64,000 nucleotides of DNA from Escherichia phage vB_EcoM_G2248: the sequence record MK327932.1; one strand, given 5' to 3'. The position numbers and the translations under genes were made by a program. The notes under the pieces are model-generated. The model searched no databases. It had not been told where the DNA came from and worked only from the letters and a program-made list of their open reading frames with translations. This document shows positions 50,941-64,000 of the stretch, in pieces; positions within the stretch are counted from its first letter, which is position 1, and each line of letters starts with the position of its first letter.

Positions 50941-51143
50941 TTACATTTAGGGCAATGCGGTTCTTTAATATAATACCCGTCTGTCTTTGGAACACTAACA
51001 GGAGCGGTTTTTATATTGTATTCAGTGAAACAACGAAAACAAGTTACGTTTTCTACAGACTGACGTTTCACCCAATCACCGGAATAGAGATCATTTTTAT
51101 TTGTCATATTCCACCACCACAATGTTAATGTCTGGAGTGGCAA
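50913..51143 (-). CDS. Cys-rich zinc-ribbon-like protein
   Basis: 76 aa; CFRCF...CPKCKC. Confidence 0.4.
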   Translation of the reverse strand: MPLQTLTLWWWNMTNKNDLYSGDWVKRQSVENVTCFRCFTEYNIKTAPVSVPKTDGYYIKEPHCPKCKCRLYWSHL

Positions 51144-51552
51144 TATTAATGATTTCTTCTACACATTCCCACTCAAGGCCACCGATACCGCAACCGATTT
51201 TAGGAATATAGAAAGGCTGTATAGCACCTTCAAAAACATCATTGAGAGCCTCAAATCCTTTCAGGATAGCACCATATTCAGCATTTGGACCCGGTCGGAA
51301 TTGGGTATAGAGATTAACCCCGCACCAATTATAACCATTAACTTGATGCGTCCAGACACTAAACCCACCCAGCTTTTCGACCTTACCGCGAGAAGTTTGC
51401 TTGTCAATCTCTAACGCTTGCGGGAACTCTTTCGCGATCTTCGCAGCAATACCAGCGCCCATAGTATGAAAACAATTACAACCATGAATTAAATGACCTT
51501 TTCCTTGTTTAAACAGGGCGATGAGATCGCCCTTTACAGTATCAATAATCAT
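51097..51552 (-). CDS. macro domain protein (ADP-ribose binding/hydrolase fold)
   Basis: 151 aa; VKGDL...HGCNCFHTMGAGIAAKI and IPKIGCGIGGLEWE resemble macro-domain glycine-rich loops. Confidence 0.6.
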   Translation of the reverse strand: MIIDTVKGDLIALFKQGKGHLIHGCNCFHTMGAGIAAKIAKEFPQALEIDKQTSRGKVEKLGGFSVWTHQVNGYNWCGVNLYTQFRPGPNAEYGAILKGFEALNDVFEGAIQPFYIPKIGCGIGGLEWECVEEIINIATPDINIVVVEYDK

Positions 51553-53039: not shown

Positions 53040-53375
53040 TTATCCTTTCTTAAACAAATTGCGAATCCAGTATACAAACGGGATTTCTTTAAACTTGAAT
53101 TTCTCTATAGTTAATTCTTTAGTAGCAAGATGAATACCATAAGCATCATGTGTCACGATATGCCATTTTCTATAGTCCAAATGTGAACAACCGTCTGGAT
53201 CTAGGTTAATAAGAGTTTCTCGCTCACTAGGATTATTTTTCCACAATTTTGTAATAGGATCGCACATAATTCGACCTAGCGTACCATGAATAATCTCACA
53301 ACGGTAAAGTTTTCCAGCAGTGAGATAGGCGCACCCGTCATAGTCGGTATAAACAAACACTTCTTTAATACTCAT
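53040..53375 (-). CDS. hypothetical protein (triplet family, CxHLD...W)
   Basis: track ORF overlaps promoter 53404-53432; ATG at 53373-53375 (MSIKEVF...). Confidence 0.45.
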   Translation of the reverse strand: MSIKEVFVYTDYDGCAYLTAGKLYRCEIIHGTLGRIMCDPITKLWKNNPSERETLINLDPDGCSHLDYRKWHIVTHDAYGIHLATKELTIEKFKFKEIPFVYWIRNLFKKG

Positions 53376-53403
53376 TTTAATACTCCTTTGTTTCGATGGG
53401 GGT

Positions 53404-53432
53404 ATATTACTACCCCCGTTTTGTTGTGTCAA
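53404..53432 (-). promoter_or_regulatory. early promoter cassette, stem-loop enclosing the -10
   Basis: TTGACA-N17-TAATAT within GGGGGTAGTAATATACCCCC. Confidence 0.5.
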
Positions 53433-53693
53433 CTACTTTTTCAAGATTTTTTTAATTGCGTTCCAAAGACCTTTATTCTCAGGTTGTTTTGGTTCTTCGA
53501 TCAGTGTCCATGTTCGACCGTCTAAGTGTGCACAATTTTTAAGACAAATAAAAATCTGGTGTCCCTTATCATCACGGATATAACCACTATTCGCAAATCT
53601 TTCATGTGGTGTATATTCATACAGTGTATTTGGTGTAATATACTTGCGGTTACTATAAGGTGTCATCACATACATCATGGTACTAACTCCCAA
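53433..53693 (-). CDS. hypothetical protein (triplet family)
   Basis: 86 aa; ...GYIRDDKGHQIFICLKNCAHLDGRTW. Confidence 0.45.
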   Translation of the reverse strand: MGVSTMMYVMTPYSNRKYITPNTLYEYTPHERFANSGYIRDDKGHQIFICLKNCAHLDGRTWTLIEEPKQPENKGLWNAIKKILKK

Positions 53694-53869
53694 CGATCAC
53701 CGCGAAGATGAGAACATCCACCATCAAGAAGTATCGTAATACGATAACCTATATCATCTTTGATGTAACCGATTGTCGGTGGATTTTCGTCGTCTCGTGC
53801 CGGGGTAAAATCATACATCTTTCCGGGCGTAATATCTTGTCCTTTATTACTATTGGTATAAACTTGCAT
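53675..53869 (-). CDS. hypothetical protein (triplet family)
   Basis: 64 aa; ...GYIKDDIGYRITILLDGGCSHLRGDRW. Confidence 0.45.
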   Translation of the reverse strand: MQVYTNSNKGQDITPGKMYDFTPARDDENPPTIGYIKDDIGYRITILLDGGCSHLRGDRWELVP

Positions 53870-60588: not shown

Positions 60589-60807
60589 TTATTTATATCG
60601 CTTTCTCTCGCGACGTTTTTGATCTTCTTCCTTGATAGAGTTAAATGCATCAAAAAGACACATGACACTAATAATAAACATAACCGTATTTTCTACGGTA
60701 TCCCACGGCTTCGCATCAGTACAGATCCCCCAAACGGTAAGAAATGCAAATAAGGCAGAAGAGATCACAAGAATGATACTTGCTAAAATATAAAAAGTCA
60801 TTTTCAT
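60589..60807 (-). CDS. small membrane protein
   Basis: 72 aa, hydrophobic N-terminus, basic C-terminus. Confidence 0.45.
   Translation of the reverse strand: MKMTFYILASIILVISSALFAFLTVWGICTDAKPWDTVENTVMFIISVMCLFDAFNSIKEEDQKRRERKRYK
60590..60597 (-). promoter_or_regulatory. candidate T4-type late promoter (TATAAATA)
   Basis: minus-sense TATAAATA overlapping the stop of ORF 60589-60807, directly upstream of the structured non-coding region. Confidence 0.35.
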
Positions 60808-60998
60808 GGTTTTACCTCAATTCTTCGATATTCATCACACATCCACGCAGTAAGCAAGAATCCCAACACATAAGCAACAAAATACGTTAATGCTTCTTCT
60901 GGTTCGGTGCTATGCGCCATCATCAGACCAGCGAGAAAGGTCTTAACAATTACATTTAAAATAATTAGCCACGCAAATAATTTCATCGTTTGCCCCAT
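60804..60998 (-). CDS. small membrane protein
   Basis: 64 aa. Confidence 0.45.
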   Translation of the reverse strand: MGQTMKLFAWLIILNVIVKTFLAGLMMAHSTEPEEALTYFVAYVLGFLLTAWMCDEYRRIEVKP

Positions 60999-61222
60999 TT
61001 CGGTCGAGTCTTTTCAAACTTATACATTCCGTAACAATCTCGAATCATCCACGTAACAAGAGCACCAGTCAACACAGACAATACACAGAAGAAGTAAAAC
61101 GGTCCGGTTGCATTATCAACATGAGCAAGCCAGGTAAAGAAAACACATGCAAGGAATGTAAAGAACATCATAAAGCACAAGAAAGCGAAATATTTTATAC
61201 TACTCATAGCGCCACCATACAA
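60983..61222 (-). CDS. small membrane protein
   Basis: 79 aa. Confidence 0.45.
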   Translation of the reverse strand: MYGGAMSSIKYFAFLCFMMFFTFLACVFFTWLAHVDNATGPFYFFCVLSVLTGALVTWMIRDCYGMYKFEKTRPKWGKR

Positions 61223-61310
61223 CAGATCATAAGAAACCCCAACGCAATAAGAATTGCATCAAATTTAGTGAACTCAGGTCCACCTATCAACATCATTCGT
61301 TCCTGTTCAT

Positions 61311-61553
61311 TCATAGATCACAGAGCCATCTTACAGCACCACATAAAGCGATCAAAAGACTAGGTATAAACGAGACTAAAACAAGACTACAAAAATCATC
61401 TAAGGTAACGCCGGAATAGCTACCTACTGTAACAACACCGATCATCAGACACAGAAAGAAAACAAATGCAATCAGAAACAAAGTATTGCTAAACAGTTTA
61501 GTGATCATTAGACACCCCACGACGATCAATTTCAAAAACTTTTTTATCATCAA
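61311..61553 (-). CDS. small membrane protein
   Basis: 80 aa, three hydrophobic segments. Confidence 0.45.
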   Translation of the reverse strand: MMIKKFLKLIVVGCLMITKLFSNTLFLIAFVFFLCLMIGVVTVGSYSGVTLDDFCSLVLVSFIPSLLIALCGAVRWLCDL

Positions 61554-61701
61554 CGAAGCATGTCACAACTGCATCGTTGACTTCCGCAAATTGTTGTGTT
61601 ACCCACTTAAGGTCAGAGCGAAACAATGTTCTATTAATAACAAATGTTTTACCGCTCTTATCCTTACCCATAAATTTTGCTTTAACCATATCAAATTCCA
61701 T
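61498..61701 (-). CDS. hypothetical protein
   Basis: 67-aa ORF. Confidence 0.4.
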   Translation of the reverse strand: MEFDMVKAKFMGKDKSGKTFVINRTLFRSDLKWVTQQFAEVNDAVVTCFVDDKKVFEIDRRGVSNDH

Positions 61702-61710
61702 ATTATCACC

Positions 61711-61869
61711 TTATTTGCTAATCGCTAAACCCAATCCGAAGAGAGCACCCGATGCTACAGTATACCCGAAAGTTTCAAATGCAGTAAAGATATCTAAGCC
61801 ACCAGCTAACAGAGTTGCAGTAAACAGAGTACCAGCTACGAACATAAAAGTTTTACCGATAAATTTCAT
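61711..61869 (-). CDS. small hydrophobic protein (52 aa)
   Basis: untracked ORF MKFIGKTFMFVAGTLFTATLLAGG...; GGAGAATCAAAATG start; promoter at 61901-61929. Confidence 0.4.
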   Translation of the reverse strand: MKFIGKTFMFVAGTLFTATLLAGGLDIFTAFETFGYTVASGALFGLGLAISK

Positions 61870-61900
61870 TTTGATTCTCCTTTCGTTTGTTTGTGGGGGT

Positions 61901-61929
61901 ATCTTACTACCCCCGTTTCATGTTGTCAA
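61901..61929 (-). promoter_or_regulatory. early promoter cassette, stem-loop enclosing the -10
   Basis: TTGACA-N17-TAAGAT within GGGGGTAGTAAGATACCCCC. Confidence 0.5.
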
Positions 61930-61935
61930 CTATTT

Positions 61936-62310
61936 TTAAGAATATTTTACTTCGTCTACAATGTCTTTCATGACATTGATTTCCATTCCGGTCAGAACAC
62001 GTTGGAACATGTGCTGCACATACGCTTTCAGGTATTCATTTGATGGCTTACTATCGAAAGTCTTTTTAGTGTAGTAGTCATCACCGAAAGCTACTGTAAT
62101 TACATTTTCGTCGTCGTTCCAAGCGATATAAGCAAATTTGCCGTTATCCCAGAAGCGAGCACTAATTGCTACTTTTGTTGAATCGAATCCTACTTCGCTG
62201 TGAGATTCAAGAACTACTTGCGTACCAGTTTCTTTATGAATGTAGTAGCGGGATACTAAGTCAAAGTTACGGGTGTAGTGACATTCGAATTTATCTTTAA
62301 ACATCATCAT
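61936..62310 (-). CDS. hypothetical protein
   Basis: track ORF overlaps promoter 62348-62376; ATG with GGAGAATCAAAATG gives MMMFKDKFECHYT... Confidence 0.5.
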   Translation of the reverse strand: MMMFKDKFECHYTRNFDLVSRYYIHKETGTQVVLESHSEVGFDSTKVAISARFWDNGKFAYIAWNDDENVITVAFGDDYYTKKTFDSKPSNEYLKAYVQHMFQRVLTGMEINVMKDIVDEVKYS

Positions 62311-62347
62311 TTTGATTCTCCTAAGTGTGTTTCGTTTCGATATGTGC

Positions 62348-62376
62348 ATTATGCTATAGTCGTTTATGGTTGTCAA
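62348..62376 (-). promoter_or_regulatory. early promoter
   Basis: TTGACA-N17-CATAAT then GCACATATCGAAACGAAACAC leader. Confidence 0.55.
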
Positions 62377-62385
62377 CACCTAAAA

Positions 62386-62412
62386 ACAAAAAACCCCGAA
62401 AAATTTTCGGGG
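62386..62412 (-). terminator. rho-independent terminator after the Acb1-like gene
   Basis: hairpin CCCCGAAAA-UU-UUUUCGGGG + U-run, 8 nt after stop. Confidence 0.6.
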
Positions 62413-62419
62413 TATAAAA

Positions 62420-62890
62420 TTACAGTTTGGTCGTCCACTCCAGGTCTAGATCTTCGACATACTCATGAGATCGGACAATCTCTAAATCGAACTCTAGGTC
62501 AGTGCCAAATTTACGCGCACCAACATCATAAGAAAGCGTGATATGCGGTACATATTCAGGATAATCCCACGTCGCACCTAAAGCAGTGCCGATATCGTGT
62601 CTGAATTGCATGTAGTCGCTTTCAAATGCCAGCACAAGCGCATTAGTACCGGATTGAGTTTCAAACACTTTCAGATGGCATAGAGAGCCTAAGAACTTCT
62701 CCCCTTCTTCTGGGATAAACGGAACATAGACACGAGAATATAAGATAGTGCTATGCAGTTTATCACGAGGAACGGCATTAGGCAGATCGTAGAACTCCTG
62801 CAATTTTTCAATGCGGTCTAGTGTATCCTCAGTGAATTTAACCGCCGCATATGTACCTTTAACGGATTCTCTAAACGGGGTCATAATCAA
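62420..62890 (-). CDS. 57B: 2H phosphoesterase, Acb1/57B-like (anti-CBASS-type cyclic-nucleotide phosphodiesterase)
   Basis: 156 aa; two H-x-T/S-x motifs (HSTILYS, HITLSYD); position immediately downstream of 57A and 1 as T4 57B. Confidence 0.65.
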   Translation of the reverse strand: MIMTPFRESVKGTYAAVKFTEDTLDRIEKLQEFYDLPNAVPRDKLHSTILYSRVYVPFIPEEGEKFLGSLCHLKVFETQSGTNALVLAFESDYMQFRHDIGTALGATWDYPEYVPHITLSYDVGARKFGTDLEFDLEIVRSHEYVEDLDLEWTTKL

Positions 62891-63153
62891 GCCTCCGTGA
62901 TCAGTTCTACTTCCTCTTCTGCGTCTTCCGCTGCTTCGTCTTTAGGGAGAAGTGCTTTCACTTCTTCGACAATAGCATCAAGGGAAACAGTCCCGTTTTC
63001 GTCTGGCTGAATACCCAGAATGCGTACCAGTTCCATCAATACACGCTCACGATCTTTCAGTTGGCCTTCTAAGAATGCGGCCTTTTCTTGAGTGTCAAAC
63101 AGACGTACTTTCAGGACATTAATCATTTGTTCATGCTGATTGGACATATTCAC
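62887..63153 (-). CDS. 57A: tail fiber assembly chaperone gp57A
   Basis: 88 aa, coiled-coil, acidic C-terminus; position between 1 and 57B. Confidence 0.65.
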   Translation of the reverse strand: MNMSNQHEQMINVLKVRLFDTQEKAAFLEGQLKDRERVLMELVRILGIQPDENGTVSLDAIVEEVKALLPKDEAAEDAEEEVELITEA

Positions 63154-63179
63154 ATCTCCTACTTGTTGATAACTTTTTA

Positions 63180-63836
63180 TTAAATGTTCGCGAGAATCGC
63201 GCTTTCAAATTCTTCTAATGTACCATTATTTATGATAATGGTTTCACCGTCAATAGGCAAAATTCCTTTTTCGGTGGAGTGAGTCGATACAATACCAGTA
63301 TCACGCTGAATATGCAACACCTTAGCACCCATAGCACGCATGAGAGCAATTTCAATAGGCTGACGCACATCAACCACTACAAAATACCCTTCTTCATTTT
63401 TGCGCTTCATAAACTCATTCACGAAGAGATTACACCAATAAAGCGGATTGATCAAGTTAACCATTATATCAGTACCGAGAGTGGTTAACATGAGACGAAT
63501 AGACCAGACGTTATTATGTTTTTCGCCGATCTCATTAACGACCTTGTAAATCTCAGCCAGACGATCACAAGTAAAGGAACTACCGCCATACTTCGAATCT
63601 AGCATAAGCAGACACTGAATAAACCACTTATGCGCGGTATAGGTATCAATACCTAGATCGGCTTCTCTGTCACGCCCTAACCCGTCAAAGTCAAGATAAG
63701 TCAGACCTAAGTCTGGTTGACATTCGCATAAGATTTCTTTGATCGGTGCTGCCAGTTGATAACTGTGTCCATCAATGATTAACGCGGCAGTATCTTTTCC
63801 TACTCGCTTTTTACCACAAAGTGCAATCAATTTCAT
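63180..63836 (-). CDS. 1: deoxynucleoside monophosphate kinase gp1
   Basis: 218 aa; P-loop CGKKRVGKDT, QLAAPIK, LMLTTLGTD, ALMRAMGA blocks as in T4 gp1. Confidence 0.9.
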   Translation of the reverse strand: MKLIALCGKKRVGKDTAALIIDGHSYQLAAPIKEILCECQPDLGLTYLDFDGLGRDREADLGIDTYTAHKWFIQCLLMLDSKYGGSSFTCDRLAEIYKVVNEIGEKHNNVWSIRLMLTTLGTDIMVNLINPLYWCNLFVNEFMKRKNEEGYFVVVDVRQPIEIALMRAMGAKVLHIQRDTGIVSTHSTEKGILPIDGETIIINNGTLEEFESAILANI

Positions 63837-63848
63837 TATATAAGCCTC

Positions 63849-64000
63849 TTATTACTTTCTAAAAGCAGGGTGCATAGCTTTAATACCTTCCACCCTCTGA
63901 CGATCCGCCGCCTGAATTGCTGGGCGAGGAACGATCAGTTGACCATCACGTTCAATGCTCATTGTTTTAAAGGGAAGAATTGCAGTACACACCAGAGATT
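63849..64000 (-). CDS. C-terminal fragment of an upstream gene (gene 3 position), truncated by window end
   Basis: open frame running to the window edge, ending ...AMHPAFRK-stop; synteny only. Confidence 0.3.

Follow-up and report, generated by a model that had tools for sequence, protein, structure and literature searches.

The gene that follows 57A in Escherichia phage vB_EcoM_G2248 raises the question of whether RB49-type coliphages encode, as T4 does with Acb1 (gene 57B), a nuclease directed against the cyclic oligonucleotide signals of CBASS. We analyzed a stretch of 64,000 nucleotides from this phage (record MK327932.1), hereafter referred to as the window, which comes from an RB49/JSE-like Krischvirus (Straboviridae) and extends from rIIA to gene 3 when mapped onto the annotation of phage JSE. 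A first-pass annotation made from the letters alone had placed an Acb1-type 2H phosphoesterase here. Our comparisons indicate that the gene is very probably the Krischvirus ortholog of Acb1, a metal-independent 2H phosphodiesterase acting on CBASS signals, the activity being assigned by homology. The gene is already known, belongs to a family characterized in 2022, and occurs in a well-sampled phage genus.

Gene model and position of acb1

The reading frame of acb1 (57B) is intact. The mechanically called ORF (62420..62890, minus strand) has a 156-amino-acid translation that begins at TTG 62890. This codon overlaps the stop codon of 57A (TGA, 62889-62887) and is separated by 1 nt from the GGAGG sequence upstream of it. 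ATG 62884 follows the 57A stop codon by 2 nt and the same GGAGG by 7 nt, and phages JSE and vB_EcoM_G37-3 are both annotated with this start. TTG 62890 was ruled out on the basis of the overlap, the 1-nt spacing, and the annotation of ATG 62884, which is the likely start codon. Because of the spacing of this ATG and its annotation in JSE and G37-3, acb1 was placed as given in Table 1, with its stop codon at 62422-62420.

Table 1. Features of the acb1 locus in the window
Feature	Position	Strand	Basis and remarks
Gene 1, dNMP kinase	63180..63836	-	Pfam DNMK E = 3.5e-68; JSE annotation
57A, tail fiber assembly chaperone	62887..63147 (also given as 62887..63153)	-	Pfam GP57 27.5 bits (cut-off 27); PHROG 1002 E = 2.1e-26; JSE annotation
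Shine-Dalgarno GGAGG	62892..62896	-	Read from the sequence; inside the last 57A codons; 7 nt before ATG 62884
acb1 (gene 57B) coding sequence	62420..62884	-	154 aa + stop codon; predicted 2H phosphodiesterase, Acb1 family
First catalytic motif HSTILYS (H44-x-T46)	62735..62755	-	Aligns with T4 Acb1 H44/T46; translation context KLHSTILYS
Second catalytic motif HITLSYD (H114-x-T116)	62525..62545	-	Aligns with T4 Acb1 H113/T115; translation context VPHITLSYD
Putative C-terminal lid, LEWTTKL (residues 148-154), with W150 (= T4 W147)	62423..62443	-	Alignment
Intrinsic terminator	62383..62413	-	Stem-loop ACCCCGAAAA-TTT-TTCGGGGT, then T-run; terminator scan

Genes 1, 57A, and 57B are co-oriented and preceded by the end of gene 3, giving the order 3-1-57A-57B found in T4. 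The Pfam matches to GP57 and DNMK, the match to PHROG 1002, and the T4 gene order together bear out the earlier statement that the ORF sits directly downstream of 57A and gene 1, as T4 57B does.

Family membership and predicted structure

The acb1 product matched the Pfam family Acb1 (PF23474) with E = 1.5e-51 and 174.3 bits, against a curated cut-off of 27 bits, over profile positions 1-143 of 144, well in excess of what chance would produce. The same domain was found in its database homologs (64 of 64). When the PDB was searched with phmmer, the sole solved relative found by sequence was Acb1 of Erwinia phage FBB1 (7T26/7T27), with ~53% identity; the match to 7T26 had E = 1.9e-43 and covered residues 12-155 of the 156-amino-acid ORF translation. 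Identity to T4 57B/Acb1 (NP_049750.1) was 47-48%. A match to PHROG 755 (1e-54) was also recorded, and the label of that group, "RNA ligase," is an old name of the family.

An AlphaFold2 model of the product, calculated from 62 sequences, had a mean pLDDT of 91.6, with low values only at residues 1-5 and 151-154. Its best Foldseek matches were 7t26 and 7t27, with an rmsd of 0.9 Å and TM scores of 0.86 (query) and 0.97 (target), and the remaining matches had TM scores of 0.5-0.7. In this comparison of a predicted model with solved 7T26, the product is predicted to have the compact 2H phosphoesterase fold of the solved Acb1. The next-best structural match (TM ~0.7) was 2H PDE-9 of Burkholderia phage BCSR5 (9Q2G/9Q2Y), another phage 2H phosphodiesterase that cuts 3'3'-cGAMP. 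BCSR5 2H PDE-9 is 16-18% identical to the protein encoded here and has its lid at the N terminus rather than the C terminus; it is a poor cutter of 2'3'-c-di-AMP and does not activate Panoptes.

Active-site and substrate-contact residues

The active site of T4 Acb1 is an HxT/HxT tetrad formed by H44, T46, H113, and T115 (Hobbs et al., PMC9117128). The bases of the substrate are stacked by Y12, W74, F107, and W147, E141 contacts the N6 of adenine, and the lid of T4 and FBB1 Acb1 comprises residues 145-152 (PMC9117128). The two 2H motifs noticed in the first-pass annotation, HSTILYS and HITLSYD, are present in the minus-strand translation of 62420..62890. They persisted on proper alignment with T4 Acb1, in which H44/T46/H114/T116 correspond to T4 H44/T46/H113/T115. 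In a three-way alignment, T4 Y12/W74/F107/E141/W147 correspond to Y12/F74/Y108/E144/W150, and both substituted residues, F74 and Y108, are the same in FBB1 Acb1, a homolog solved with 3'3'-cGAMP bound. By alignment, the HxT/HxT tetrad, the stacking aromatics, and the adenine-reading glutamate of Acb1 are all present at the predicted positions.

Across 63 homologs (31-79% identity), H44, T46, S50, H114, T116, L117, and Y119 were invariant, and G10, Y12, R95, Y111, P113, E141, Y142, and E144 were conserved in at least 90%. The lid sequence DLDLEWTTKL aligned with the lids of T4 and FBB1 Acb1, and pLDDT was below 50 at residues 151-154, as expected of a flexible lid. Relative to T4 and FBB1 Acb1, the product has a 2-residue insertion around residues 131-134, before the last strand.

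The protein thus shares with T4 Acb1 the Pfam family, the size (154 vs 152 aa), the HxT/HxT tetrad, the adenine-reading glutamate, the tryptophan of the predicted C-terminal lid, and the position of its gene after genes 1 and 57A. It differs from T4 Acb1 in overall identity (see above), in having phenylalanine for W74 and tyrosine for F107, and in the insertion. The resemblance to FBB1 Acb1 extends to the F and Y stacking residues and to the superposition of the predicted model on the solved structure, although FBB1 belongs to another phage lineage with another host and its Acb1 is without the insertion. Pfam PF23474, the superposition on 7T26, the residues, the synteny, and the UniRef name given below all support the proposed Acb1-type identity.

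Distribution and conservation in Krischvirus

Over the 2-kb region around acb1, 58 phage records showed 95-99.7% identity; all are RB49/JSE-like Krischvirus with E. coli or Shigella as hosts. Over the 521 bases that span acb1, identity to both Shigella phage Sf20 and Escherichia virus KFS-EC was 100%. The protein was 100% identical to JSE gp57B (YP_002922201, annotated 57B) and to QBO64722 of G37-3. This exact protein belongs to a cluster of 79 members and occurs on 316 contigs; its UniRef name is "Anti-CBASS protein Acb1 n=16 Tax=Krischvirus, Q7Y455_BPRB4" (Q7Y455 of RB49). At the nucleotide level, all differences in acb1 were synonymous (8 of 8 from JSE and 4 of 4 from G37-3), a pattern that fits purifying selection. 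The Acb1 of the RB49-like phage vB_EcoM-G2494 is one residue apart (D129N), and this phage was among the 57 included in the lysate screen of Hobbs et al. (PMC9117128).

Two deposited Krischvirus genomes carry a disrupted acb1. In phage Cognac (MZ504877; locus L007, positions 140-603), a 1-nt deletion in a run of five Ts splits the gene into ORFs of 64 and 82 aa, and in phage vB_Eco_TB34 (OX001802; locus L008, positions 94-525), two 1-nt insertions remove the N terminus and the lid. Either genuine gene loss, of the kind described for Bas43 and Panoptes escapers, or sequencing error could account for these frameshifts. That losses in Cognac and TB34 were selected by Panoptes-type guard systems, which penalize the depletion of cyclic nucleotides, is a separate proposal, and one that we regard as improbable.

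Transcription signals

The strong terminator hairpin downstream of acb1 (62413-62393) starts six bases past the stop codon and consists of a 9-bp GC-rich stem followed by TTTTTTGTTTTT. It folds with -12.8 kcal/mol (z = -3.64), carries a terminator annotation in G37-3, and is kept in JSE and Cognac. The terminator scan revealed nothing convincing between genes 1, 57A, and 57B, and the hairpin therefore ends the entire co-oriented 1-57A-57B run. The earlier statement that the gene has "its own terminator" consequently stands insofar as a real terminator is present, and requires correction in that this element lies outside 62420..62890 and serves the whole run.

Directly beyond it, on the minus strand, a near-consensus sigma-70/T4-early-type promoter match (TTGACA-17-CATAAT, 62376-62348) precedes the gene for a 124-aa protein. 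No T4-type late promoter (TATAAATA) was found on either strand of 61000-64000, nor in the JSE locus ahead of gene 3. Further sigma-70-like matches occur at 63863-63835 and 63253-63225, and the -10 element of the first overlaps the start codon of gene 1.

Genes near acb1

In T4, the downstream neighbor of acb1 is ipI, whereas here the gene is followed by the terminator, the early-type promoter, and the uncharacterized 124-aa protein. The gene for this protein (61936-62376, minus strand) matches PHROG 15253 with E = 3e-87, its only Pfam match is a sub-threshold one to T4 Gp30.7, and it has a hairpin terminator of its own at 61893-61916. A tblastn search of window positions 1-64000 (E ≤ 1) with T4 Vs.4 (Acb2, a cyclic-nucleotide sponge) and IpI returned no match. 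This is weak evidence against a second anti-CBASS gene (Vs.4/Acb2) or an IpI gene in the window, because 57A, which profile methods detect, was likewise missed by tblastn.

A homolog of Dmd, the antitoxin against RnlA/LsoA, is encoded ~700 nt downstream of acb1 (61498-61701, minus strand; Pfam Dmd E = 2.1e-15; dmd in JSE). acb1 and dmd are thus two predicted anti-defense genes located near each other, with small uncharacterized genes between them. Very small minus-strand ORFs (36-80 aa) at 60589-61553 and 61711-61869 encode strongly hydrophobic, apparently membrane-spanning products that have no Pfam match and are hypothetical in the JSE annotation. Farther away, three neighboring small ORFs (53040-53869, minus strand) that look like paralogs by eye occupy the place of T4 vs.3/vs.4/vs.5 and have in common the motif G-Y-I-x-D-D ... 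C-x-H-L-x-G/Y-R-x-W. A homolog of T4 Tk.4 (45% identity), a phosphatase with an A1pp motif according to the T4 and JSE annotations, lies at 51097-51552 on the minus strand.

Predicted function of Krischvirus Acb1

T4 Acb1 cuts 3'3'-cGAMP, cUA, cAAA, and cAAG and leaves cGG and cA4 uncut, and nine of nine further Acb1 homologs cut both 3'3'-cGAMP and cAAA (PMC9117128). Protection from CBASS in vivo was documented by the phenotype of T4 Δacb1 (PMC9117128). T4 does not need acb1 on a host that lacks CBASS, but when the host carries CBASS, transposon insertions in the gene are depleted; its expression in T4 falls mainly in the middle and late periods. Acb1 further degrades 2'3'-c-di-AMP and cA3 and can thereby trigger Panoptes guard systems, from which phages escape by acb1 mutation. 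In 2H phosphodiesterases, the protein core determines the substrate range, which can differ among close structural relatives (bioRxiv 10.1101/2025.08.21.671373). The Panoptes paper (PMC12657218) does not mention Bas46, Bas47, or Krischvirus.

By analogy with these enzymes, the most likely function of the product would be the metal-independent cutting of adenine-containing cyclic di- and trinucleotides, which would disarm CBASS. As in T4 and FBB1 Acb1, a cyclic di- or trinucleotide with at least one adenosine would be clamped in a U-shaped pocket under the C-terminal lid, with its bases stacked on Y12, F74, Y108, and W150 and one adenine read by E144. With the H44/T46/H114/T116 tetrad providing metal-independent acid-base catalysis, the 2'-OH of the adenosine would then attack the 3'-5' bond, cutting 3' of the adenosine, and the ring would be linearized via a 2',3'-cyclic phosphate intermediate. 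Destruction of 3'3'-cGAMP, cUA, cAAA, cAAG, and like signals during infection would keep the CBASS effectors of the host inactive, and any cA3-dependent effector would be silenced likewise. We infer the substrate range and the in vivo effect of Krischvirus Acb1 from its characterized relatives.

Alternative interpretations

The "RNA ligase" label found in RefSeq and PHROG 755 corresponds to a different reading, in which the product is a general LigT-like 2H enzyme with RNA ends as its substrate, either a 2'-5' RNA ligase or a 2',3'-cyclic phosphodiesterase. E. coli LigT and the cellular 2H phosphoesterases do share the superfamily fold and the paired histidine motifs; LigT structures occur among the fold matches, and the Pfam models 2_5_RNA_ligase2 (PF13563) and LigT_PEase (PF02834) match weakly. 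However, both scores fall under their cut-offs (19.4 vs 27 bits and 14.0 vs 23.3 bits, respectively) and cover only the second histidine motif. LigT and its cellular relatives are also larger proteins with 11-12% identity, a TM score of ~0.5, and an rmsd of 6-7 Å, compared with TM 0.86-0.97 and 0.9 Å for Acb1, and the label is older than the 2022 work that characterized T4 57B as a nuclease of cyclic oligonucleotides. Membership in PF02834 or PF13563 was ruled out by the sub-cut-off scores and the poor structural matches, and we consider activity of this kind on RNA ends very unlikely. It is scarcely conceivable that acb1 is a decayed or inactive copy retained through its operon position alone: the frameshifted genes of Cognac and TB34 would fit such decay, but in vB_EcoM_G2248 the frame is open, every invariant family residue is in place, no nucleotide difference from JSE or G37-3 alters the protein, and the model folds at high confidence.

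The points counted against the Acb1 assignment itself are the identity of 47-53% to tested enzymes, the 2-residue insertion (~131-134), and the variation in substrate range that can occur among structurally close 2H phosphodiesterases. The distance from T4 Acb1 and the insertion are also what could speak for a genuine Acb1 whose substrate spectrum is shifted from that of T4, for example by sparing 2'3'-c-di-AMP or cA3, which would avoid Panoptes, or by gaining substrates. Such a shift would accord with the observations that related 2H phosphodiesterases differ in 2'3'-c-di-AMP cleavage and that Acb1 activity can trigger Panoptes. On the other side, every residue reported to contact the substrate is either conserved or carries the replacement seen in FBB1 Acb1, the other homologs tested were uniform in cleaving both 3'3'-cGAMP and cAAA, and the present sequence and structure comparison yielded no positive evidence for a shift. 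A Krischvirus Acb1 that differs from T4 Acb1 in its substrates appears unlikely, and an Acb1 with the activity of its characterized relatives is the interpretation that we favor.

Implications

Many GenBank and RefSeq records still describe acb1 as "RNA ligase" or "hypothetical protein," and the assignment made here is of value for their annotation. As by-products, the analysis corrected the start codon and led us to place the end of a transcription unit at the terminator. By analogy with T4 and FBB1 Acb1, RB49-type coliphages appear to carry an intact predicted anti-CBASS nuclease, which may be useful for forecasting their host range among CBASS-positive strains. The presence of Acb1 may also help to predict the sensitivity of these phages to Panoptes-type guard systems.
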